From NCBI GenBank assembly GCA_043799545.1, contig JAZDNO010000006.1:32001-96000 (forward strand): a stretch of 64,000 bases of DNA, written 5' to 3'. Positions 42,909 through 55,181 of the stretch are shown piece by piece (within the stretch, counting starts at the first letter, position 1; each line of letters opens with the position of its first letter). The translations under genes were made by a program, and so were the position numbers. The notes below the pieces were generated by a model. The model did not search any database and was not told the origin of the DNA. It saw only the letters and a program-made list of their open reading frames with translations. The DNA is from Methanobacteriota archaeon (GTDB lineage: Archaea; Thermoplasmatota; Thermoplasmata; SG8-5; DAIRED01).

Positions 42909-42973
42909 GCGGCACCAGGGGGATGAGACAGTCGCCGATTAAGAGCTTTGCGGAGGAAGCCTGCCAAATCAAT

Positions 42974-43060: not shown

Positions 43061-44782
43061 ATGAAGCCCAAGGTAGCGGTGTTCGACTTCGCAAGCTGCG
43101 AAGGCTGCGAACTGCAGATCGCGAATCTCGAGGAGCAGGTAATCGACCTAGTCGGCGCGGTCGACATAGTCTCCTTCAGGGAGGTCATGAAGGAGCACTC
43201 GGACGATTACGACATCGCGTTCATTGAGGGCTCGATAAACCGACCTCTGGACGAGGAGCGGTTGAAGAAGATTCGGTCTCGCGCGAAGGTCCTCATCGCC
43301 ATGGGCGACTGCGCCTGCACGGGCTGTGTCAACAAGCTGAGGAACCAGTGGACGGTCGAGGAGGTCAAGAAAGAGGTGTATCCAGACGCGGCGGCGCAGA
43401 TGAAGGGCAACGAGCTCTTCGACATCTTTCCGACGAAGGCCATCGACGAAGTCGTGAAGGTGGATTTCTACATCCGCGGCTGCCCGATTCGGAAGGAGCA
43501 GTTCATCTATTACGTCAACAGGTTCGCGACCATGCCCCCGAGGAAGAACATGAACCTGCGCTTCAAGATCACCGAAAGGGAGATGGAGTCCGACCCCCGC
43601 TCGGTAATCCACTACGACCCGCAGAAGTGCATTCTTTGTAGGCACTGCCAGATAATATGCAACGACGTTCTTGACGTGCACGCCATCGGCATATCGGAGA
43701 AGGGGAACGAATCCATCATCTCCACGCCTTTTGAGAAAGGGCTGGAGGCCAACAACTGCATCAAGTGCGGCCAATGCCTCGTCAATTGCCCGGTCGGAGC
43801 GTTTTCGGAGAGCGCGGGAGTCGAAAAGGCCAAGGCGCTCATCGAGGACCCGAAGAATTACGTCATCCTGGTCATAGACCCGATTGCGATGGCCTCGGCA
43901 ATGGAGGGGATGATGACGTCGGAGACGCAGCTGGGGCCGGTGATTAGGAGGACGATATCGGCGTTCAGGAAGCTCGGCGTCAAGAGGGTGCTCGATTTCA
44001 CAAACTTCACGTACCTCTCAATCGCGGCGCAGGGCGAGCACATCAGGAACCACCACGAGATGAGCTTCGCATCATGGTGTCCGAGCGCCAGTATTTTCGT
44101 GAAGAAGTTCTATCCGCAGTTCAAGAAGTACCTGCACCCAGAATTCGAACCAGTTAACATCATGGCAGACCAGCTGAGGGCCAAGTACGGCAAGAAGAAT
44201 CTGAAGATAGTGCTTGTGAGCCCATGCATCGTGCACAAGGGCAACGAAAGCATCGACGCAGTGCTGACCGCCAGGGAGCTGCCGAGGCTCCTGAAATCAT
44301 GCGAGCTCGACATCGATTTCTTCCCTGCCGAAGGGGTGGACTTCGACACCGAGTGCTCCATGACGACGACGTTCCTCAGCGGGGCCAGGAACGACCACAC
44401 TTACTCCGTGCAGATGCTTGAAGCTGCGTACTATGGCAAATTCAAGAACCTCGATTCGGCGCTCGACATCAAGACCATCGGCGACTACGCCCACGAACTG
44501 ACCTTCGACAGCGAGGAGGGCTTCTTCAACGCCCTCGTCATCGAAGACATAGCAAAGACCAGCAAGTACCTCGAGAAGGACATAAGGAAGTACAACATCG
44601 TCGAGCTTTACCCGTGCTACTGGGGGTGCGTCACCGGCGGCGGGCAGACGCTGACGACTTCGTTGGCTGTGCTGGAGCACAGGATGGCTTTGCTGAAGGA
44701 GTACAAGGGAACGATAAAAGACCATGGCAAATTCATAGCCCAGATGATTGCCGGGTACGAACAGTGCAAGAGGGGTGAGTAA
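43061..44782 (+). CDS. Hybrid subunit: [NiFe] small-subunit N-domain fused to the 2x[4Fe-4S] and H-cluster domain of an [FeFe] hydrogenase
   Basis: SCEGC, GDC, GCP (small subunit); CILCRHC and CIKCGQC..CPVGA; degenerate P1 ASWCPS, P2 SPCIVHK, P3 ELYPCYWGCVTGGG. Confidence 0.88.
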   Translation: MKPKVAVFDFASCEGCELQIANLEEQVIDLVGAVDIVSFREVMKEHSDDYDIAFIEGSINRPLDEERLKKIRSRAKVLIAMGDCACTGCVNKLRNQWTVEEVKKEVYPDAAAQMKGNELFDIFPTKAIDEVVKVDFYIRGCPIRKEQFIYYVNRFATMPPRKNMNLRFKITEREMESDPRSVIHYDPQKCILCRHCQIICNDVLDVHAIGISEKGNESIISTPFEKGLEANNCIKCGQCLVNCPVGAFSESAGVEKAKALIEDPKNYVILVIDPIAMASAMEGMMTSETQLGPVIRRTISAFRKLGVKRVLDFTNFTYLSIAAQGEHIRNHHEMSFASWCPSASIFVKKFYPQFKKYLHPEFEPVNIMADQLRAKYGKKNLKIVLVSPCIVHKGNESIDAVLTARELPRLLKSCELDIDFFPAEGVDFDTECSMTTTFLSGARNDHTYSVQMLEAAYYGKFKNLDSALDIKTIGDYAHELTFDSEEGFFNALVIEDIAKTSKYLEKDIRKYNIVELYPCYWGCVTGGGQTLTTSLAVLEHRMALLKEYKGTIKDHGKFIAQMIAGYEQCKRGE

Positions 44783-45256
44783 ATGGACGTCAAGGACAGG
44801 TTCGTAATCGACACGGTTCTGGAGAAGTACAAAGGGGTCCGGGACCCCGCCCTCATAATACTCCAGAATATCCAGGCCGTCCTCGGATACGTCGGGAAGG
44901 ATTACCTGGAGTACGTCGCCGAGAAGACCGATTACTCCCTCACGGAATTGTACGGCATAGTCACATTCTATCCGTCGTTCAGGCTGGAGCCACCGGGGAA
45001 GCACACAATCAAAGTCTGCCAGGGGACGGCCTGCCACGTCCGGGGCGGGGAGAAGGTGCTGAAGGCGGTGGAGGAGCTGCTGGAAATCAAGCCCGGCGGG
45101 ACGACCAAAGACCGGCTTTTCTCGCTGGAATCGGTCCGGTGCCTCGGCTGCTGCGGCCTCTCGCCAGTCATAATGATAGACAACGAAACTTACGGGCGGG
45201 TAAAACCCGCCAAGCTCAATGAAATCCTGACCAAATACGGGGAGGCGGGCGAATGA
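44783..45256 (+). CDS. NuoE/HydC-like [2Fe-2S] subunit
   Basis: TFYPSF, VCQGTACHVRG, RCLGCCGLSP. Confidence 0.92.
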   Translation: MDVKDRFVIDTVLEKYKGVRDPALIILQNIQAVLGYVGKDYLEYVAEKTDYSLTELYGIVTFYPSFRLEPPGKHTIKVCQGTACHVRGGEKVLKAVEELLEIKPGGTTKDRLFSLESVRCLGCCGLSPVIMIDNETYGRVKPAKLNEILTKYGEAGE

Positions 45257-48200
45257 AGATAAAGAGGAAGTTCGACCTGGAGGACCTGGCCAAGGCGGGT
45301 TTGGCCGACATGAACAGCGAGAACCCGCAGCTGATTTTCGGTCTGGCGACTTGCGGAATCGCGGCCGGCGGGATGCCGCTCAAGGAATACGCCGAGGAAT
45401 ACCTGTCGGTTAAAAACCCCAACGCCGAGATAGTCTCAGTGGGCTGCATCGGCATGTGCCACGCGGAACCGCTGGTGGACGTCAAGCTGCCGGGGAGGCC
45501 GAGGGTCACGTACCACAATATGACGGTTGAGAAGTTGAAGCGGGTCATGGACGAGCATCTTCTCGGGGGAAAGCCGGCCAAGGACCTGGCGCTGGCCCAG
45601 CTATCGGAGGAGATGTCCGAGTGCGTCGACGGCGTCCTGAAGTTCGACTCGAAATACGAGGGGATTCCGACCTATCGGGAGCTGCCCTTCTTCACCAAAC
45701 AGAAGAGGATTGTCCTGAGAAACTGCGGGATAGTCAATCCCGAAAGCCTGAAGGAGTACATTGCCAGGGGCGGCTACAAGAGCGCGTTCGCGATGCTTCA
45801 GGAGATGAAGCCCGAAGAGGTCATCGGCATCGTGAAGAAATCCGGCATAAGGGGCAGGGGCGGGGCGGGTTTCCCGACGGGGCTGAAGTGGGAGCTGTGC
45901 GCCAAAGCGCCTGGGGACGTGAAGTACATCATATGCAACGCGGACGAGGGCGACCCTGGCGCGTACATGGACCGGGCCGTGCTCGAAGGGGACCCGCACA
46001 GCGTCATCGAGGGGATGATAATCGGCGCCTACGCCATGGGCGCGTCAGAGGGCTTCGTCTACGTTAGGACGGAGTATCCGCTCGCCATCAAGCATTTGAA
46101 GCTGGCATTGGCCCAGGCTGAGAGCCACGGGCTCCTCGGCGAGAGAATTCTGGGAACGGACTTCAACTTCCAGATACACATCCGGGAAGGGGCGGGCGTG
46201 TTCGTCTGCGGCGAGGAGACGGCGCTCATGCATTCGATAGAAGGCAAGCGCGGGGAGCCGAGGCCCAGGCCGCCGTTCCCGGCGTCCAGCGGCCTGTGGG
46301 GCAAGCCCACCAACATCAACAATGTCGAGACGTGGGCCAACATCCCGCTCATCATGCAGAGGGGCGGGGCCTGGTTCGCGAAAATCGGGACCGAGAAGAG
46401 CACAGGGACGAAAGTATTCTCCCTTGTCGGCAAGATAAACCGGGCTGGCCTGGTGGAGGTGCCCGCGGGCATACCCCTGAAGGACATAGTGCACGAGATG
46501 GGGGGCGGTTGCCCCGACGGGAGGAAGGTCAAGGCCGTGCAGACGGGCGGGCCGTCCGGCGGTTGCATACCCGTCGAGCATCTGGACGTCACGGTGGATT
46601 ACGAGAACCTGAAGGCGCTGGGCTCCATCGTTGGGTCCGGTGGAATGGTCGTAATGGACGAGGACACGTGCATGGTCGACGTGGCTAGGTACTTCCTCTC
46701 TTTCACATCCGAAGAATCTTGCGGGAAATGCACTCCCTGCCGCGTCGGAACCAAGAGGATGCTGGAGCTGCTCCAGAAGATATGCCACGGCCAAGGCACT
46801 CCAGAGGATGTGCAGGTATTGGAGAACCTGTCCATCCAGGTGAGGGATGCGTCGCTTTGCGCGCTCGGCGGCACCGCGCCGAACCCGGTCCTCACCACTC
46901 TGAAATACTTCAGGCACGAGTACATGTCCCACGTCGAGGACGGCAAGTGCAAGGCGAGCGTGTGCGCGGCCATGTTCAAGTCGCCGTGCCAGAACACCTG
47001 CCCGGCCGGCACGAACGTCCCGGGATACATCCAGCTGATAAACGAGGGCAAGCTCGTTGAGGCCTACCAGGTGAACCTCGAGAACAACCCGTTCCCCTCG
47101 GTTTGCGGGCGCGTTTGCGAGCACCCATGCGAGGCAAGGTGCCAGCGCGGCCAGCTGGACGAGTCGATTGCCATCAGGGACCTTAAGAGGGTATGCTCCG
47201 ACGGCTTCGCCAAGTCCAAGAAGGCGCCGAAGGTTTCGAAGCTCAAACCCGTGGGGAAGAAGGTCGCCATAGTCGGCGGCGGGCCGTCGGGCATGTCGGC
47301 GGCGTACTTCCTCGCCCGCCTGGGCTACTTGCCGACCGTGTTCGAATCGGCCGAGAGGGCGGGGGGCTGGATGCGCTACGGGATACCGCGCTACAGGCTG
47401 CCGCACGAGGTGATCGACCGGGAGATAAAGAACATCGTCGACCTGGGCGTGGAATTGAAGACCGGCGTCGCCGTAGGCAGGGACGTGACTTTGCCCGAAC
47501 TCAAGAAGAAGTATGACGCGGTGTACCTAGCCATCGGGGCACAGCTCGATAAAAAGCTCGGGCTGGAGGGCGAGGACCTGCCCGGCGTGTTGCCAGGGCT
47601 CCAGGTGTTGAGGGATGTCAACGGCGGCAAGAAGGTCGACATCGGAAGGCACACGCTCATCATCGGTGGGGGCAACGTCGCTGTGGACGTGGCAAGAACC
47701 GCCGTGCGTGTGGGCGCCAAGGTGACGATTTGCTACAGGCGCGAGGAGCAGGACATGCCCGCCTACCGTGAAGAGGTAGAGCAGTGCAAGCAGGAGGGCG
47801 TCACTTACCACTTCCTCGTGGCGCCGGAGAAGCTAATCGTCCAGAAGGGAAGGGTCGTCGGAGCAGTGTTCAGGAAGAACTCGATTGGGGAGTTCAACAA
47901 GCACGGCCGCAGGGCGCCGGTGCCGACGGAAGAGACGCTGGAGGTCAAGGCCGACAGCATCATCGTGGCCATCGGGCAGGACGTCGACGAAGGCTTCGCA
48001 AAGGGATTCGACGGCGCGATTCTGGGCAAGGGCAAGCTCGTCGAGACCAAGAAAGGCCTGGCGACTAGCGACCCTAAGGTATTCGCCGGAGGGGACGCGG
48101 TCCTGGGGCCGGCGAGCGTCATCGAGGCCATAGGCCACGGAAAGCAGGCCGCGAGGAGCATCGACGCGATGCTCAGCGGGAAAGACAGGTTCCCCGAGCT

Positions 48201-48402
48201 GGAAGAGCACAACTTCGCGGGCTATTCCATGGCGGAGCCCAAGAACGAGCAGGAGATGCCGCGCCAGCATTCGGCGGAGGCCGAGGCTGCCAAGCGGATG
48301 TGCGGCTTCGACGAGGTGGTGATGTGCCTGGACGCGAAATGCGCCAAGAAAGAATCATCGAGATGTCTGAGGTGTGACCTCAGCGCAGTGGGGGATGATT
48401 AG
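45253..48402 (+). CDS. NuoF/HydB-like flavoprotein fused to a GltD/NfnB-like FAD/NAD(P)H oxidoreductase
   Basis: GRGGAGFPTG, NADEGDPG, CGEETAL, CGKCTPCR; then CQNTCP, CGRVCEHPCE, GGGPSG, GGGNVA..YRR, RCLRCD. Confidence 0.92.
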   Translation: MKIKRKFDLEDLAKAGLADMNSENPQLIFGLATCGIAAGGMPLKEYAEEYLSVKNPNAEIVSVGCIGMCHAEPLVDVKLPGRPRVTYHNMTVEKLKRVMDEHLLGGKPAKDLALAQLSEEMSECVDGVLKFDSKYEGIPTYRELPFFTKQKRIVLRNCGIVNPESLKEYIARGGYKSAFAMLQEMKPEEVIGIVKKSGIRGRGGAGFPTGLKWELCAKAPGDVKYIICNADEGDPGAYMDRAVLEGDPHSVIEGMIIGAYAMGASEGFVYVRTEYPLAIKHLKLALAQAESHGLLGERILGTDFNFQIHIREGAGVFVCGEETALMHSIEGKRGEPRPRPPFPASSGLWGKPTNINNVETWANIPLIMQRGGAWFAKIGTEKSTGTKVFSLVGKINRAGLVEVPAGIPLKDIVHEMGGGCPDGRKVKAVQTGGPSGGCIPVEHLDVTVDYENLKALGSIVGSGGMVVMDEDTCMVDVARYFLSFTSEESCGKCTPCRVGTKRMLELLQKICHGQGTPEDVQVLENLSIQVRDASLCALGGTAPNPVLTTLKYFRHEYMSHVEDGKCKASVCAAMFKSPCQNTCPAGTNVPGYIQLINEGKLVEAYQVNLENNPFPSVCGRVCEHPCEARCQRGQLDESIAIRDLKRVCSDGFAKSKKAPKVSKLKPVGKKVAIVGGGPSGMSAAYFLARLGYLPTVFESAERAGGWMRYGIPRYRLPHEVIDREIKNIVDLGVELKTGVAVGRDVTLPELKKKYDAVYLAIGAQLDKKLGLEGEDLPGVLPGLQVLRDVNGGKKVDIGRHTLIIGGGNVAVDVARTAVRVGAKVTICYRREEQDMPAYREEVEQCKQEGVTYHFLVAPEKLIVQKGRVVGAVFRKNSIGEFNKHGRRAPVPTEETLEVKADSIIVAIGQDVDEGFAKGFDGAILGKGKLVETKKGLATSDPKVFAGGDAVLGPASVIEAIGHGKQAARSIDAMLSGKDRFPELEEHNFAGYSMAEPKNEQEMPRQHSAEAEAAKRMCGFDEVVMCLDAKCAKKESSRCLRCDLSAVGDD

Positions 48403-49083
48403 ATGCCTTCAGGCGTGATGATTGAGATTGTAGTTGACGGCAAGAAGATACATTGCCAGCCTAACCAGACGGTGCTGGAAGTCGCCAAGGCGAACAACAT
48501 CAGCATCCCGACGATGTGCCTGAACCCTCTGTTTCCGGGGCACAAGGTGGGTGCGTGCAGGATGTGCCTCGTGGAGATAACGGGGGGCGGGAGGCCTGGG
48601 CTGCAACCGAGCTGCACGCTGCCTGTCTCGTCGGGTCTGGCCATGTCCACATGCAGCGATGCAGTGTACAACGCCAGGCGGACTGTGGTGGAGCTGATGC
48701 TGACGGAGCACGTGCAGAAATGCCGCGACTGCCCCATCAGCGGTGACTGCAACTTCGCCAGGCTGTGCAGGGACTACGACGTCAACGGCGTCCCGGTCTG
48801 CGCGGAATGCCCCAACCAGAGGGAGGGCTGCCTGCTCAAGCGCGGAGTCCTCTGCGTCGGGCCGATAACGTACGCCAACTGCAACGCCTACTGCACCCGG
48901 CAGGGGTACAGATGCGAGGGTTGCCACTCCGTGATGGTGCACGACGACATACTGAAGTTCGGCATCAGGGCATTCAAGGACGCTGGCTTCAAGGCCAAGG
49001 ACATAGTGGAGGCAGCGAAAGTCTTCTCGTACGACAGCGTCAAAAGGGTCGAGAAGGCGCTGAAAGAGGAGGGGATGAAATGA
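48403..49083 (+). CDS. Hybrid subunit: HydA/NuoG N-terminal [2Fe-2S] and His-ligated [4Fe-4S] domains fused to the distal-cluster domain of a [NiFe] small subunit
   Basis: IPTMC..GACRMC..SC, EHVQKCRDC..GDC; then PVCAEC..CL..C.GPIT.A.C.A.C..C.GC. Confidence 0.85.
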   Translation: MPSGVMIEIVVDGKKIHCQPNQTVLEVAKANNISIPTMCLNPLFPGHKVGACRMCLVEITGGGRPGLQPSCTLPVSSGLAMSTCSDAVYNARRTVVELMLTEHVQKCRDCPISGDCNFARLCRDYDVNGVPVCAECPNQREGCLLKRGVLCVGPITYANCNAYCTRQGYRCEGCHSVMVHDDILKFGIRAFKDAGFKAKDIVEAAKVFSYDSVKRVEKALKEEGMK

Positions 49084-50375
49084 GCGAAAAGAACGTCCGC
49101 GTTGAGCATCTGACAAGGGTGGAGGGGCATGGCAACATCATCCTCAACTCCAAGAACGGCAAGTTGGAGAAGGTGGTCTGGGAGGTCTCGGAGGCTCCGA
49201 GGCTTTTCGAGGCCTTCGTGAGGGGGAAGCCCTATAGCCAGCTCGCGCAAATCACATCGAGGATATGCGGGATATGCTCCATCGGTCACACGATGGCATC
49301 TCTGAAGGCGACGGAGGCGGCGATGGGGATTGAAATATCCGAGCAGAGCGAGAAGCTCAGGCGGCTCGCGATGCACGGGGAGAACCTCCAGAGCCACGTT
49401 CTTCACGTGGGATACCTCGTCGCTCCAGACCTGTTCGGCGTGGGCAGCGTCGTTCCGCTAGTCGGAACCCACACCGACACCGTCCTGGCGATAATCAAAC
49501 TGCACAAGACGGCGAACGAGTTCTCGGACATGATATGCGGCCGGACGACGCACCCGACCAACCTGGTTCCAGGCGGGCTGTGGAAAACGCCCTCGCCACT
49601 GAAGCTTAGGAGCATGAGGCAGAAGCTCCTGGAGATGGTGCCTACGGCGAATGCTGTCGCCGAGGTGGTGCTGGCAAATGCGGGAGCCCTGCCGAATTTC
49701 ACGAGGGAGACGGAATTCATCGGCTTGGTGTCCAAGGACGAGTACGCGCTCTACGACGGCGACGTCGGCTCGACGGACGGCGGAACCTTCCCCGTGTCGT
49801 CGTACAGGACGATAGTCAACGAGTTCGTAGTACCCCAGTCCACCGCGAAGTACACGAAGCACAAGCGCGACTCTTTCATGGTCGGAGCCCTGGCCAGGTA
49901 CAACCTCAACTCCAAGAAGTTGTCTCCGATGGCGAAGGATTGGGCGGACAGGTTCGGCCTCAAACCGGTATGCCACAACCCGTTCATGAACAACGTGGCC
50001 CAGCTGGTCGAGGTGTTCAATTCCGTCGAGGATTCGATCGCGATAATCGACAGCCTGCTCGGCAAGTACGCCGACGAGCCCAGGCCAAAGATTAAACCGA
50101 AGGCCGGGAGCGGCGTTGGGGCGGTGGAGGTTCCGCGCGGTATACTCTTCCACGACTACACGTACGATGCCAACGGCCTGTGCACCAAGGCGAACTGCGT
50201 CATACCGACGAACCAGAACCACAACAACATCCAAAAGGACATGGAGGCGTTCGCGCCCACGCTCCTCGACAGGCCGGAAAAGGAGATCGAGCTAAACCTC
50301 GAGATGCTCGTGCGCGCCTACGACCCGTGCATCTCCTGCTCGACGCATTATTTAAAGGTCAAATTCGTGCGTTGA
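49080..50375 (+). CDS. Group 3b-like [NiFe] hydrogenase large subunit (hybrid operon)
   Basis: TRVEGHG, L1 RICGICSIGH, EVPRG, L2 DPCISCSTH plus an 8-aa tail. Confidence 0.95.
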   Translation: MSEKNVRVEHLTRVEGHGNIILNSKNGKLEKVVWEVSEAPRLFEAFVRGKPYSQLAQITSRICGICSIGHTMASLKATEAAMGIEISEQSEKLRRLAMHGENLQSHVLHVGYLVAPDLFGVGSVVPLVGTHTDTVLAIIKLHKTANEFSDMICGRTTHPTNLVPGGLWKTPSPLKLRSMRQKLLEMVPTANAVAEVVLANAGALPNFTRETEFIGLVSKDEYALYDGDVGSTDGGTFPVSSYRTIVNEFVVPQSTAKYTKHKRDSFMVGALARYNLNSKKLSPMAKDWADRFGLKPVCHNPFMNNVAQLVEVFNSVEDSIAIIDSLLGKYADEPRPKIKPKAGSGVGAVEVPRGILFHDYTYDANGLCTKANCVIPTNQNHNNIQKDMEAFAPTLLDRPEKEIELNLEMLVRAYDPCISCSTHYLKVKFVR

Positions 50376-50592: not shown

Positions 50593-52521
50593 TTGAAGAT
50601 AATACAAAAGGATGATTTCAAAGGGTTTGTGAACGCGCTGATAAAGGACAGCGGCATGGACGTTGAAGGCGTGAAGGCGAAGGGCCCGAAGTTCGCCTTC
50701 GGGCCGCTGGACAGCGCCGACGAGCTCAGGCTCGATTACGACGTCACGCTCCTGCCCCCGAAAAAGTATTTCCTGCCTCAGTACGAACAGTTGATGACCT
50801 TCGATTTGTCGAGCCCGTTCTCTGTCACCAGAGCCGAATACCCGCGCCGCAAGCTCATCATCGGCGTTCATCCCTACGATATTGTCGCGATTAGGCAGAT
50901 GGATAGCTATTTCCTCGACACGGATGTATCGGCCAGCTACCTCAGGAGGAAGAAGAACATACTCATCATCGGCTGCGATGTCATGCGCGTGCAGGACAAG
51001 GCCTTCTTCGGCTCGATGGGCACGGGGATGGTGCATTCTGGATACGACCTCTTCCTGACCGACCTGGGCGAGAAGGTGGCCATCGAGGTCGGAACTGAAG
51101 CGGGAAGCGACCTGCTCAGGTTCGCGACGAATGTGAGGGAGGCCACCCCGGTCGAGGTCCAGAAGGTCAAGGCGATGAGGGAGGCCACCGCGCTGAAGGC
51201 GACGCGCGGCCTGATGGTGAAGCCGAATGGCTGGCACGACCTGCTGGAGAAGGACTACGAGAGCGAGGTCTGGAAGAAGCAATCCGACAAATGCCTGGCT
51301 TGCGGCACGTGCACGCTGGTCTGCCCGACGTGCTTCTGCTACGACGTCAAGGACGACATACACCTGACTTTAAAGACAGGCGAACGGTCTAGGACGTGGG
51401 ACGGTTGCTTGCTCCGCCGGTTCACCGAGATAGGGTCCGGGGAGATATTCAGGGACGACATCCTCGACAGGTACAGGCACAGGATTCACAGGAAGGGTCG
51501 GTACCTCCCCGACCGATTGGGGTTCGTAGCCTGCGTGGGATGCGGTCGCTGCTCGAGCCAGTGCGTCCCGGACATTGCAGACCCGGTCAACCTAATTAAC
51601 ATGCTGTTCGAGGCGTCGCCGCACCTGGTAACCGATTCGCTTTCCGACCCGCACACCGTGAAGACAGACTTCACGAATCTCCCCGAGGGCGACACGGCCA
51701 AGATGCTCCACATGCCTGTGCCGGCAACCATCAATAGGGTTGAGAAGCTCACGGCGAAGGAGACTCTGTTCGAGATATCTCTCGACGACGGGAAGGCGCT
51801 CGGTCACGTGCCCGGCCAGTTCGTCGAGGTCTCAATCGCCGGCATGGGAGAATCCCCGATATCCGTTTCGTCAGCGCCGGGAACCAAGACCTTCGAGCTG
51901 GTAGTCAGGAAGGTCGGAGACGTCACGAGCAAGCTCCACACCATGAAGGCGGGAGATAAAATAGGAATCCGCGGGCCGTTCGGAAAGGGCTTCGACACCG
52001 AGGGTTTGAAGGGGAAGAACCTGCTCTTCATCGGGGCTGGCCTGGGCATGGTCCCGATGCGCTCCTTCATCAACCACGTGCTCAACAACCGCAAGGACTA
52101 CGGCGAGGTGACGATACTCTATGGATGCAAGGAACCGTGCGAGATGCTCTTCGCCAAGGAAATAGGGTCATGGGGGAAGCGCGATGACATACAGCACAAG
52201 AGGGCTGTCGACAAGTGCCCCGAAGGAGCGTGCTGGGACGGCGAGATAGGCGTCATAACGACGTTGCTGCCGAAGGTCAAATTCGATCCCAAGACGACGG
52301 TCGCCATCGTCGTCGGACCTCCGATCGTCTACAAATTCGTGAACAGGGACCTGCTCAAGCTCGGTGTGCCTGAGGAGAACATCGTCGTCTCCCTCGAAAG
52401 GCGCATGAAGTGCGGCGTCGGCAAGTGCGGGCACTGCCAGATGAACGGCATCTACGTATGCAAGGAAGGGCCAGTGTTCAATCTAAAGGACCTTAAGGGC
52501 GTGCAGGAGGCGTTCGAATGA
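50593..52521 (+). CDS. Fused beta (Fe-S) and gamma (FAD/NAD) subunits of a group 3b sulfhydrogenase (AsrA/AsrB-like)
   Basis: CLACGTCTLVCPTC.C and CVGCGRCSSQC; then PGQF, RGPFG.G, GAGLG..P, CGVGKCGHC...C. Confidence 0.9.
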   Translation: MKIIQKDDFKGFVNALIKDSGMDVEGVKAKGPKFAFGPLDSADELRLDYDVTLLPPKKYFLPQYEQLMTFDLSSPFSVTRAEYPRRKLIIGVHPYDIVAIRQMDSYFLDTDVSASYLRRKKNILIIGCDVMRVQDKAFFGSMGTGMVHSGYDLFLTDLGEKVAIEVGTEAGSDLLRFATNVREATPVEVQKVKAMREATALKATRGLMVKPNGWHDLLEKDYESEVWKKQSDKCLACGTCTLVCPTCFCYDVKDDIHLTLKTGERSRTWDGCLLRRFTEIGSGEIFRDDILDRYRHRIHRKGRYLPDRLGFVACVGCGRCSSQCVPDIADPVNLINMLFEASPHLVTDSLSDPHTVKTDFTNLPEGDTAKMLHMPVPATINRVEKLTAKETLFEISLDDGKALGHVPGQFVEVSIAGMGESPISVSSAPGTKTFELVVRKVGDVTSKLHTMKAGDKIGIRGPFGKGFDTEGLKGKNLLFIGAGLGMVPMRSFINHVLNNRKDYGEVTILYGCKEPCEMLFAKEIGSWGKRDDIQHKRAVDKCPEGACWDGEIGVITTLLPKVKFDPKTTVAIVVGPPIVYKFVNRDLLKLGVPEENIVVSLERRMKCGVGKCGHCQMNGIYVCKEGPVFNLKDLKGVQEAFE

Positions 52522-53294
52522 CCAAACCGCGAGTTGCGTTCTTCGACTTCTCGAGCTGCGAGGGCTGCCAGCTCCAGGTCGTCAACCTGGAGGAGGCCAT
52601 ACTGGATGTCGTCGGGCTCGTCGACATAGTCGAATTCAGGGAGGCCATGAAAGAATCCTCGACAGAATACGACATTGCAATTATCGAGGGGTCCATCGCA
52701 CGGCCGATGGACGTCGAGAGGATAAAGAAGATTAGGGAGAGGGCAAAGGTGCTAATCGCACTCGGGGCATGCGCCCACCTCGGCGGAGTACAGAGGATGG
52801 GCAACAAATGGACCGCTGAGGAGAACAAGGCAGAAGTCTATGCGAGACACCCCGGCTCCGAGGTGACAAAGGGCGATGCCAACCCCTATTTCGACCAGCC
52901 CAGGCACAGGGCCGTGGACGAGATTGTCAAAGTGGACTACACGATTCCGGGATGCCCCATAGACTCGAACGAGTTTGCGAAGGTTCTGATTGCTCTCCTG
53001 ACGGGCAAGAAGCCGCCTATTCCAGACTACCCAGTTTGCGTGGAGTGCAAGAAGAACGAGAACATCTGCCTCTTCACCATCGGGCAGTTCTGCATGGGGC
53101 CGATAGCTAGGGCCGGATGCGGCGCGATATGCCCGACCCACGGCGGCGAGTGCGAGGCGTGCCGAGGGTACGTGGACCACCCGCACACGCAAGCCCAGAC
53201 GGAAGTGCTAAAGAAGCACGGGCTGACGGTGGACGAAATCATGAACAGGAAGACAATGTACACTCACCGCTACGTCGAGGAGGGGAAACAATGA
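52518..53294 (+). CDS. Group 3b [NiFe] hydrogenase small (delta) subunit, complete
   Basis: SCEGC, GAC, PGCP, PVCVEC...C.GP...GC...CP....C..CRG. Confidence 0.93.
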   Translation: MTKPRVAFFDFSSCEGCQLQVVNLEEAILDVVGLVDIVEFREAMKESSTEYDIAIIEGSIARPMDVERIKKIRERAKVLIALGACAHLGGVQRMGNKWTAEENKAEVYARHPGSEVTKGDANPYFDQPRHRAVDEIVKVDYTIPGCPIDSNEFAKVLIALLTGKKPPIPDYPVCVECKKNENICLFTIGQFCMGPIARAGCGAICPTHGGECEACRGYVDHPHTQAQTEVLKKHGLTVDEIMNRKTMYTHRYVEEGKQ

Positions 53295-54589
53295 GCAACG
53301 TCAACATCAACGTCGAGCACCTGACAAGGGTCGAGGGCCACGGCAACATTGTGCTGAACGCGAAGGACGGCAAAATCGAGAAGGTGCAGTGGCAGGTTTC
53401 CGAGGCCCCGCGCTTCTTCGAATCGTTCGTCAGGGGGAGGCCATACAACGAGCTCAGCCACATCACCTCTAGGATTTGCGGCATCTGCTCCATCGGGCAT
53501 TCGCTCGCCTCCCTAAAGGCCACAGAAGCCGCAATGGGCATCCATACTTCGGAGCAGACCGAGATTCTCAGGCGGCTCGCGATACACGCGGAGAACATTC
53601 AGAGCCACGTTCTTCATGTGGGCTACCTGGTCGCTCCCGACTTGCTGGGGGCGCCGAGTGTGATTCCTCTTGCGGGCACGCACACTGGCGCAGTTCTGAA
53701 AATCGTCGGGTTGCACCGCTTGGCTAACGAGTACTCCAACATGATTTGCGGAAGGACAGTCCACCCGATCAGCCTCATCCCGGGCGGCTTCAGTCACATC
53801 CCTTCCGAGAAGCAGCTTAAGGGACTGAGGAAGAAGATTGCAGATGCGGTTCCTGATGTCGTCGCAGTCGCGGAGATAGTTCTGGCAAACGCGCACAAGC
53901 TACCGAACTTCTCTCGCGAAACGGAGTTCATAGCCCTCACGGCAGACGACGAATATGCCATCTACGACGGGGACATGGGCTCGACGGACGGCGGTCGCTG
54001 GCCGGTCGACAAATACCTTGAAATTACCAACGAATTCGTGGTCCCGCATTCGACGGCAAAGTTCACTAGGCACAAGCGCGAATCGTACATGGTCGGGGCG
54101 CTCGCACGCTTCAACCTCAACTACGACAAGCTGACCCCGGGGGCAAAGGAATGGGCCGGGAAATTCGGCCTGAAGCCAGTCAACCACAACCCGTTCATGA
54201 ACAGCGTCGCGCAGCTCGTGGAAACCGTGCACAGCTTCGAGGACTCGATAGCGCAAATCGACAAACTCATCGGGATGGGAATCGACGTCAACGAGAGGCC
54301 GAAGTTCGCAGTCAAGGCCGGTCATGGCGTGGGTGCGGTGGACGTGCCGAGGGGAATCCTCTTCCATGATTACACATACAACGACAAGGGCATTTGCACT
54401 AAAGCCAACTGCATCATCCCCACCAACCAGAACCACAACAACATAAACCAGGACTTCAAAGCGTTCGCGCCGACGATAATCGACAAGCCAGAGAAGGAAA
54501 TCGAGCTTCTGATGGAAATGCTGGTTCGCGCGTACGACCCGTGCATCTCCTGCTCGACGCACTACCTTGACGTGAAATTCGTGCGTTGA
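53291..54589 (+). CDS. Group 3b [NiFe] hydrogenase large (alpha) subunit, second copy
   Basis: TRVEGHG, RICGICSIGH, DVPRG, DPCISCSTHYLDVKFVR. Confidence 0.95.
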   Translation: MSNVNINVEHLTRVEGHGNIVLNAKDGKIEKVQWQVSEAPRFFESFVRGRPYNELSHITSRICGICSIGHSLASLKATEAAMGIHTSEQTEILRRLAIHAENIQSHVLHVGYLVAPDLLGAPSVIPLAGTHTGAVLKIVGLHRLANEYSNMICGRTVHPISLIPGGFSHIPSEKQLKGLRKKIADAVPDVVAVAEIVLANAHKLPNFSRETEFIALTADDEYAIYDGDMGSTDGGRWPVDKYLEITNEFVVPHSTAKFTRHKRESYMVGALARFNLNYDKLTPGAKEWAGKFGLKPVNHNPFMNSVAQLVETVHSFEDSIAQIDKLIGMGIDVNERPKFAVKAGHGVGAVDVPRGILFHDYTYNDKGICTKANCIIPTNQNHNNINQDFKAFAPTIIDKPEKEIELLMEMLVRAYDPCISCSTHYLDVKFVR

Positions 54590-54710
54590 TTGGATGTATC
54601 GCATTTCGAGAAAGCCGAAGCAGGAACCCAGGAGCGTCGGCCAGGGCACTAATAAACGTCGACAGGTTAAGGAAAGCCCGGGATTGCGACAATCGGTCAT
54701 CCGTGGCAAG

Positions 54711-55181
54711 ATGCCAAAAGCCGCCGTCATAGGAATAGGCAACCCCCTGATGTGCGACGACGGTGCGGGAATCGAGGTTCTGGACGCCCTTCGGAAGATG
54801 ACCTTGCCCGCAGGCGTGGACATACTGGACTGCGGGACCGGAGGGATGGCTCTCTTGCATGCGCTGGCGGATTATCGCGCCGTCGCAATCGTGGACGCGG
54901 TCGATTTCGGGGGCAGGCCTGGAGAAGTGAAATCTTTCTCCCCGGACGATGCCGTCTCCATAAAGGAGCTCAAGCGCCTGTCGCTCCACGAAGGGGACGC
55001 CTTCGAGACAATCGTTCTGGCAAGAAGGCTGGGCCAGTGCCCAGAGAATATAGTCATCTGCGCAATCCAGCCCAAGCGGATCGAGCCCAGGCACGGGATG
55101 ACCCGCGACGTGCGCTCGAAGCTGCCAGAACTCGCCTCTCAGGCGCGCCTGGCTCTCGAGCGGCTTTTAGCCAGCCGTTGA
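54711..55181 (+). CDS. Hydrogenase maturation endopeptidase (HyaD/HycI family)
   Basis: GIGNPLMCDDGAG, IVDAVD, SLHE. Confidence 0.92.
   Translation: MPKAAVIGIGNPLMCDDGAGIEVLDALRKMTLPAGVDILDCGTGGMALLHALADYRAVAIVDAVDFGGRPGEVKSFSPDDAVSIKELKRLSLHEGDAFETIVLARRLGQCPENIVICAIQPKRIEPRHGMTRDVRSKLPELASQARLALERLLASR

Follow-up and report, generated by a model that had tools for sequence, protein, structure and literature searches.

We analysed a 64,000-nucleotide stretch of DNA (hereafter the window) from a Thermoplasmatota archaeon of the SG8-5 lineage, and found that two genes of its hybrid hydrogenase operon, gene 1 and hydD (gene 4), are reciprocal chimeras of the same two parents: HydA of the [FeFe] hydrogenases and the small subunit (HyhS) of a group 3 [NiFe] hydrogenase. 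The operon is of the published group F [FeFe]/group 3f [NiFe] hybrid type, in which group F [FeFe] hydrogenases form complexes with group 3 [NiFe] hydrogenases, encoded by these five genes (Greening et al. 2024, Cell, PMC11216029). The hybrid system itself has thus already been described, and our locus is a close relative of the published example; what is new here is the explicit reciprocity of gene 1 and HydD. The account that we consider the best overall explanation, and hold with somewhat more confidence than doubt, is that of reciprocal HydA/HyhS chimeras whose chains interlock, with a single origin of the junctions followed by modular reshuffling around them. The genes of the hybrid are arranged as follows:

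43061-43537, plus strand: gene 1, N-terminal part; [NiFe] small-subunit N-domain (proximal [4Fe-4S] cluster) and the next helix, to ...MPP (Pfam Oxidored_q6; sulfhydrogenase delta match)
43550-44782, plus strand: gene 1, C-terminal part; HydA F-domain (two [4Fe-4S] clusters, classical CxxCxxCxxxC motifs) and H-cluster domain (Pfam Fer4_7 and Fe_hyd_lg_C; alignment with HydA of structure 8a6t)
44783-45256, plus strand: HydC; NuoE-like, thioredoxin-like [2Fe-2S] protein (Pfam 2Fe-2S_thioredx, E 6e-47)
45253-48402, plus strand: HydB, 1049 residues; NuoF-like module for flavin mononucleotide and NADH, and GltD/NfnB-like module (Pfam Complex1_51K, NADH_4Fe-4S, Fer4_20 and Pyr_redox_2)
48403-48792, plus strand: HydD, N-terminal part; HydA N-terminus with a [2Fe-2S] and a His-ligated [4Fe-4S] cluster (Pfam Fer2_4 and NADH-G_4Fe-4S_3; HydA match)
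48793-49083, plus strand: HydD, C-terminal part; [NiFe] small-subunit C-domain with medial and distal [4Fe-4S] clusters and eight cysteines (sulfhydrogenase delta match, cysteine spacing)
49080-50375, plus strand: HyhL, the [NiFe] large subunit of the hybrid (Pfam NiFeSe_Hases; best solved relative the group 3b sulfhydrogenase alpha subunit)

Gene 1 (43061-44782) starts at the ATG at 43061 (MKPKV...), within a longer open reading frame that opens at 42923. Its residues 1-152 are 58-59% identical to an intact small subunit encoded downstream in the window (52518-53294) and correspond to residues 3-150 of the Pyrococcus furiosus sulfhydrogenase delta subunit. Residues 164-542 form an unbroken alignment with residues 120-519 of a bifurcating HydA (8a6t; E 1.7e-42), and a single reading frame carries both Pfam Oxidored_q6 (residues 13-152) and Fe_hyd_lg_C (residues 278-527). 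An earlier note on this DNA had described gene 1 as following the small subunit through GCP...PP, to about 43540, and then switching to HydA; we located the GCP motif near 43478 and the PP near 43535, in agreement with that coordinate. Twenty-two homologues are colinear with gene 1 in joining a small-subunit N-domain to a C-terminal HydA catalytic domain, and the four cysteines of the H-cluster (SWC, SPC, PCxxxC) as well as both ferredoxin motifs are retained in all 23 complete sequences. The H-cluster motif SWCP replaces the canonical TSCCP, and the canonical proton-relay cysteine is replaced by tryptophan.

HydD (48403-49083) holds the other half of each parent. Its residues 7-135 correspond to HydA residues 4-128 (E 8.9e-21), and the best longer relatives of this part are intact [FeFe] HydA proteins, matched over this part only, rather than NuoG or FdhA. 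Residues 130-220 correspond to residues 160-250 of sulfhydrogenase delta (E 3.9e-13), and an alignment of the C-terminal part with the intact small subunit starts at PVC (E 4e-11). The spacing of its eight cysteines (x2, x6, x7, x8, x3, x6, x2) is identical to that of the intact small subunit, and all eight are invariant across 16 HydD homologues, in which the junction ...YD(I/V)(N/D)GVPVC(A/S)EC is near-invariant. The switch from ...DYDVNGV to PVC falls at 48790-48795, and these coordinates, matches and spacing agree with what had been claimed for this gene, namely a HydA N-terminus running to ...DYDVNGV (about 48792) and continuing as the PVC of the small subunit, with its eight cysteines. 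Among the HydD relatives searched, none carried the C-terminal half in a longer protein. By their E-values, these domain matches lie far outside what chance would give.

Together, the four parts make up both parents. In an alignment with eight intact HydA proteins, the N-terminal part of HydD ends where the HydA-derived part of gene 1 begins, and comparison with the intact small subunit leaves only a linker of about seven residues unaligned. Because the halves abut in both alignments, neither parent has lost or duplicated more than a few linker residues, and the swap is reciprocal and seamless. The proposal that essentially nothing was lost or duplicated thus stands, and the rejoined halves cover both parents, as expected of it. 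Both breaks fall in short inter-domain linkers of the parents.

To assess the conservation of this arrangement, we scanned one genome per species for group F operons, which gave 26 loci. The gene order S(N)A(C)-C-B-A(N)S(C)-L (where S, A, C, B and L denote HyhS, HydA, HydC, HydB and HyhL, and N and C in brackets the halves) and identical break positions were found in 26 of 26, wherever the contig reaches. Within group F, the constancy of breakpoints and order that the reciprocal reading leads one to expect was therefore borne out, with the A(N)S(C) gene never missing where the locus reaches it. Using the HydA part of gene 1 in a profile-free search, we also recovered more deeply diverged fusions. 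Both chimeras co-occur in all sufficiently long loci, that is, in the 26 of group F and in seven deeper relatives, and no single-chimera locus turned up in these 33 loci, in some 80 HydD clusters or among the S(N)A(C) representatives. The reciprocal-chimera reading explains this constant co-occurrence.

The deeper relatives include two further types of operon. In three loci (L031, L037 and L038), hydC and a short hydB come first, followed by adjacent S(N)A(C) and A(N)S(C) genes and then hyhL. HydB of this hydCB-first type comprises 413-431 residues without the GltD module (L031:2427-7830; L037:6225-11731; L038). In an Hdr-linked type (L035:4903-14588; L032:1-2887 with L030:792-7327; L036), a gene for an HdrA-MvhD fusion (794-823 residues) precedes S(N)A(C), hydC and, where complete, a hydB with the GltD module (L035, L036 and L030+L032). 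Downstream of hydB in L035 and L032 lie A(N)S(C) and next, in the position of HyhL, a gene for an HdrD-like protein with a 4Fe-4S dicluster and two CCG domains. An ordinary 3b large subunit was found elsewhere in both of the two Hdr-linked-type genomes searched, and in this type the chimeric scaffold may be part of a complex that is Hdr-linked and [FeFe]-only. These variants suggest that the chimeric scaffold is the conserved core, with exchangeable catalytic and acceptor modules.

Both junctions are of fixed length across these types. HydD has exactly 16 residues between the last cysteine of the His-ligated cluster and the first cysteine of the C-domain in L031, L037, L035 and L032 (28-46% identity), and gene 1 has 51-52 residues between GCP and the first ferredoxin cysteine in L031 and L030. 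As these lengths are constant despite deep divergence, the breakpoints do not vary, and we infer that both junctions arose once, ahead of the separation of the known lineages.

A structural model of the complex is consistent with an interlocked assembly. Gene 1 modelled with HydD reached an interface score (ipSAE) of 0.81, compared with 0.00 for the best of three controls; of 80 solved complexes, 58 score as high, as do 2 out of 110 mismatched pairs, counts that apply only roughly because alignments of our own were used for the model. The runs share at least 92% of contacts, with a partner confidence (predicted local distance difference test, pLDDT) of at least 86. The surest modelled contacts join F-domain residues 188-191 and 244-246 of gene 1 to residues 99-118 in the N-terminal part of HydD, as in intact HydA, and gene 1 residues 83-96 and 136-147, around the ligands of the proximal cluster, also lie in the modelled interface. 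Structures of HydA and of small subunits have already been solved, and the good score may reflect likeness to them. We propose that the two chains interlock such that each parental fold, small subunit and HydA, would be rebuilt from two polypeptides, and that this would tie the [NiFe] large subunit and the H-cluster to a single wire leading to HydB and HydC. The domain set of bifurcating HydABC-type enzymes is present, with the HydA domains distributed over two chains, and the hybrid enzyme is probably electron-bifurcating. Bifurcation by the hybrid was previously inferred from a structural model, and H2 turnover by the matured fusion protein has been demonstrated for two SG8-5 homologues (PMC11216029).

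The published example, from Thermoplasmatota UBA147, is our locus L002, in which HydD is 81% and HyhL 84% identical to those of the window; its gene order is the same wherever the contig reaches, and a 3b operon likewise lies downstream. The published genes, including the fused HyhS-HydA subunit and the GltD-like HydB, are those of the window, and only the reading of their domains differs. The three [4Fe-4S] clusters of the fused subunit were credited to the [NiFe] component (PMC11216029). Our domain matches instead assign to the fused subunit one small-subunit cluster, the proximal one, and two clusters of the HydA F-domain, and would place the medial and distal domain in HydD. The reciprocal-chimera reading thus corrects the published assignment, in that the [NiFe] small subunit contributes only one of the three. 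The published methods positioned the cofactors of HydD from a small-subunit chain (5ODC_E; PMC11216029), and the structural likeness between HydD and the small subunit is therefore used in that work but not discussed there. Full-text literature searches found no statement of a reciprocal swap or of a recombination origin, and PMC11216029 does not mention reciprocity, in keeping with the earlier remark that such an origin had not been seen stated.

The operon has the HyhS-HydA fusion, the cysteine ligands of the H-cluster and the contiguous hydC, hydB, hydD and hyhL genes that characterize group F, and its placement in the published group F clade follows by proxy from the UBA147 contig, which is 81-84% identical in the parts present on L002. 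HyhL is of the 3b type, with the sulfhydrogenase alpha subunit as its best solved match (224 bits, compared with 194 bits for group 3c); the large subunits of hybrids have been found to fall into several clusters (PMC11216029). The hybrid departs from group 3b in that its small subunit is divided over gene 1 and HydD, and in that its partners are HydB and HydC.

The hybrids, in which two unrelated enzymes became one complex, are a recent and striking discovery, and the reciprocal-chimera reading supplies a concrete, testable model of origin and assembly in which two chains rebuild two parental folds. A single reciprocal illegitimate crossover between hydA and hyhS would make both junctions, provided that the DNA bearing hydA was circular or tandemly repeated. 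Such a crossover would leave the gene with the N-domain upstream and the one with the C-domain immediately in front of hyhL, an arrangement found in both gene orders. The incoming circle would have carried hydC-hydB-hydA to give the group F order, or hydA alone to give the hydCB-first order. Modular changes would have followed: hydCB would have been relocated, HydB would have gained or lost the GltD module, and the large subunit would have been replaced one or more times by exchange and lost from one type of operon, with the HyhS N-domain possibly exchanged alongside. That both chimeras are the two products of one crossover, and that the scaffold outlived its parts, with some lineages exchanging the large subunit, others relocating hydCB or putting Hdr-type modules where the large subunit had been, while its junctions stayed fixed to the residue, is a proposal that we put forward tentatively, at rather less than even chances. 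A one-crossover origin is the simplest and most economical, plausible but unproven rather than a demonstrated mechanism. If true, a single crossover produced in one step an obligately interlocked two-chain scaffold that welds two unrelated hydrogenases together. A linker-level domain swap between two iron-sulfur relay subunits is suggested as a design rule for coupling redox enzymes.

Several points weigh against this account, beginning with the assembly itself, as the model output only partly assigns gene 1 residues to the parts of HydD. The ancestry of the small-subunit halves is a second concern. The hybrid and the neighbouring small subunit are 59% identical in the N-terminal part and 29-32% in the C-terminal part, and the stem of the hybrid clade measures 0.27 substitutions per site for the N-half compared with 5.16 for the C-half. 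The congruence anticipated for the separated halves holds for their best solved relatives, which agree within each pair (group 3b for the small-subunit halves, bifurcating HydA for the HydA halves), but not for the amounts of divergence, which are strongly unequal. Intact homologues whose N-terminal part is 57-65% identical to the neighbouring small subunit have C-terminal parts at 53-75%; given the far lower C-terminal identity of the hybrid, we rejected the neighbouring intact small subunit as its parent. In the N-half tree, the hybrids form a single clade nested among Thermoplasmatota-type 3b small subunits, and in the C-half tree they form a single clade that attaches weakly near Thermoplasmatota-type 3b sequences. 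With the deep types added, the C-half tree places all hybrids in one clade (support 98/94), and the N-half tree groups group F with 3b (support 80/79), away from the deep hybrids. Pairwise identities agree with the trees: for the N-half, group F shares 59% with 3b and 38-39% with the hydCB-first type, whereas for the C-half the values are 32% with 3b and 43-44% with the hydCB-first type. When compared with P. furiosus delta, the N-half obtains 81 bits in group F and 82 bits in the hydCB-first type, and these equal scores disfavour simple acceleration in the latter. A firm incongruence between the halves fell short of the threshold: constraining all hybrids to one clade in the N-half costs only 1.8 log-likelihood units (P value of the approximately unbiased test, p-AU, 0.44), and a tree that joins group F to 3b in the C-half is likewise not rejected (p-AU 0.15). 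The discordance, as these trees indicate it, is present but not statistically firm.

The history of the [NiFe] large subunit, as read from its phylogeny, is non-vertical, which also weighs against a simple origin. In its tree, group F and neighbouring 3b sequences interleave, and a single group F clade is rejected by a narrow margin (p-AU 0.039). Against Thermococcales 3b sequences, the large subunit of the hydCB-first type scores 276 bits and that of group F 224 bits, and the two are only 35% identical, which fits the several large-subunit clusters noted in PMC11216029. We infer that, once the chimeras existed, the hybrid and ordinary 3b operons exchanged large subunits, perhaps together with the small-subunit N-domain that has to fit them; homologous recombination within these two conserved flanks is a conceivable route. 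An alternative to exchange is a burst of C-half change right after the swap. A recent gene conversion linking the hybrid with the 3b genes next to it was rejected on third-position identity (37-70% in windows along the genes), on the longest exact runs (29 nucleotides in the large subunits and 12 in the small-subunit N-terminal parts) and on overall nucleotide identity (0.70 and 0.63, respectively); synonymous sites between these paralogues are saturated. For the HydA donor lineage, intact HydA proteins all show about 22-30% identity in the H-domain and 25-41% in the N-terminal part, and their rankings differ between the halves, with no clear winner.

The remaining points against a single crossover concern the event itself. 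It cannot be demonstrated from sequence this old, and selection alone would confine independent fusions to short linkers. Microhomology cannot be recovered, as the junctions predate divergences to about 30-45% protein identity and no parental DNA survives. There are two gene orders, that of group F and the Hdr-linked type (which have hydB-GltD in common and closer F-domains) and that of the hydCB-first type; the ancestral order is ambiguous, and the gene content of the donor can therefore not be inferred from the present order. Finally, an archaeal locus (L027:537-4174) encodes an intact divergent HydA (530 residues), an intact small subunit (242 residues) and a large subunit consecutively, on a contig that ends 536 bases upstream. 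Such an unfused HydA-HyhS-HyhL locus permits routes of two or more steps from adjacent genes, and the two enzymes may have been associated before any swap took place.

The alternative that survives best, although we regard it as doubtful, is that the two fusions came about separately through gene fission and fusion, perhaps starting from adjacent HydA-HyhS-HyhL genes. Each would have been fixed because proteins stay functional only when broken in the domain linkers, and the reciprocity would reflect structural constraint rather than a single recombination. L027 shows that the unfused arrangement exists, and no unfused protein found came closer to the HydA part of gene 1 than its HydA (E 5.5e-31). 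The position of both breaks in short linkers would fit as well, and small subunits reduced to the N-domain, as in the Acetomicrobium mobile and Hox enzymes, indicate that the two domains are separable. Separate events would not, however, readily account for the lack of any single-chimera locus in the survey above, for the C-domain gene lying directly before HyhL, where hyhS lies in ordinary operons, or for the N-domain gene lying upstream on the same strand, as insertion predicts, and each route that we could devise requires at least two or three in-frame rearrangements.

The exact model of the earlier note, in which a circular hydC-hydB-hydA molecule integrated once into hyhS of a neighbour-like 3b S-L operon and left the group F order as its untouched product, is less likely still. 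C-B-A is the usual gene order in trimeric hydrogenase operons and was seen here in one example, L028. The predicted product is the order of all 26 group F loci, reversing the crossover gives two operon cores of known kinds, and the N-half of the hybrid nests in Thermoplasmatota-type 3b small subunits on its short stem (only 0.27). This model is nonetheless hard to reconcile with L031, L037 and L038, where hydCB lies upstream and the chimeras are adjacent, such that either hydCB moved later or the circle was hydA alone. The neighbouring small subunit resembles the hybrid at 59% in the N-half but at 29-32% in the C-half, the saturated synonymous sites between the neighbouring paralogues speak against a recent local event, and the bit scores of the large subunits (276 for the hydCB-first type versus 224 for group F) indicate that S-L was not simply inherited vertically. 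The order as a crossover product thus fits group F but not the hydCB-first loci, and the proposed C-B-A cargo rests on one of two known orders; the mechanism is a reasonable hypothesis, but in this specific form it outruns the evidence. The broader claim that one integration created both fusions is favoured by chimeras that always occur together and by fixed junctions, and is set back by the stepwise routes, the large-subunit history and the linker constraint.

That there was no swap at all, the C-half of HydD being an ordinary ferredoxin-like 2x[4Fe-4S] domain of the kind present in HoxU or NuoG and HydD a short NuoG-like conduit, is highly improbable: HydD was described as a NuoG-like conduit with four clusters (PMC11216029) and its C-half matches no Pfam family, but this half matches sulfhydrogenase delta with no HydA, NuoG or HoxU F-domain match there among the 60 matches listed, has the cysteine spacing of intact small subunits and not the classical CxxCxxCxxxCP motifs, aligns and groups in trees with small-subunit C-domains, and had its cofactors placed from the small-subunit chain 5ODC_E in the published methods themselves.

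Comparison with other hydrogenases places the reciprocal chimeras in context. HydABCSL of A. mobile (PDB 7T2R/7T30) shares NuoE/NuoF-like HydC and HydB, a group 3 large subunit, a small subunit restricted to the N-domain (179 residues) and a HydA-like subunit whose N-terminal clusters match HydD (E 5.8e-19). Its HydA, however, is a single chain of 692 residues, of which only the N-terminal clusters and the F-domain match, whereas the H-domain of gene 1 does not; none of its listed genes matches the small-subunit C-domain, and it has no reciprocal chimeras. The A. mobile enzyme has no true H-cluster subunit (PMC11216029). Relative to trimeric HydABC (PDB 7P5H, 7Q4V and 8A6T), HydB and HydC are homologous, and the N-terminal part of HydD and the C-terminal part of gene 1 together span HydA from its N-terminus to about residue 519, which in the trimeric enzymes is a single chain. 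The H-domain of the window is 25-30% identical to theirs, with SWCP in place of TSCCP, and its HydB has the GltD module. Group 3b sulfhydrogenase (P. furiosus SHI; PDB 9E1J and 9NEZ) is the best solved relative of HyhL and of both small-subunit halves, but its delta subunit is one chain and not divided over two proteins. L027 (GCA_038731705.1) matches the description of group G and shares a divergent HydA beside group 3 small and large subunits; unlike in the window, its HydA and HyhS are both intact, and its small and large subunits share only 36-37% identity with their counterparts in the window.

Gene 1 homologues come in a long form of about 570 residues and a short form of about 495 residues, as a comparison of L010, L011 and L013-L025 with L001-L008 and L012 shows. 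Between the forms, the HydA parts share only 27-33% identity, compared with 44-79% identity to the window for the other operon proteins; loss of the H-cluster in the short forms was rejected, as every ligand is present. One protein of 859 residues (P0225) has response-regulator receiver and histidine-kinase ATPase domains ahead of a complete S(N)A(C) with all H-cluster cysteines, and may be a sensory or regulated form. In the source genome, which is 94% complete, HydF gave no match above the family cut-off and HydG no match; the route of H-cluster maturation is an open question for many archaea (PMC11216029).

The group F operon was also found in bins labelled Balneolales, Balneolaceae, Cyclonatronaceae, Gemmatimonadales and Gammaproteobacteria (L014, L016-L021, L023 and L025), the record names of which indicate more than one sample series. 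Provided that these bins are correct, the hybrid extends beyond archaea. A HoxEFUYH-like cluster follows the operon in those Balneolota-labelled bins whose contig reaches that far.

In total, the plus strand of the window carries eight genes between 43061 and 54589, followed by a maturation protease gene. Downstream of the hybrid lie:

50593-52521, plus strand: neighbouring group 3b operon, fused HyhB/HyhG-like subunit, start codon uncertain (Pfam Fer4_22, FAD_binding_6, NAD_binding_1 and DHODB_Fe-S_bind)
52518-53294, plus strand: neighbouring group 3b operon, intact small subunit, 258 residues (Pfam Oxidored_q6)
53291-54589, plus strand: neighbouring group 3b operon, large subunit (Pfam NiFeSe_Hases)
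54594-55181, plus strand: hydrogenase maturation protease of the HycI family (Pfam HycI, E 2e-26)

The operon at 50593-54589 has the undivided three-cluster small subunit with HyhB/HyhG partners that characterizes group 3b, and its large subunit is 71% identical to HyhL. The intact small subunit has 5,966 homologues at E <= 1e-10, with sizes of 234-281 residues among the 120 listed. In the fused subunit at 50593-52521, the HyhB-like iron-sulfur part and the HyhG-like part, which binds flavin and nicotinamide adenine dinucleotides (FAD/NAD), are joined as a single open reading frame of 642 residues.

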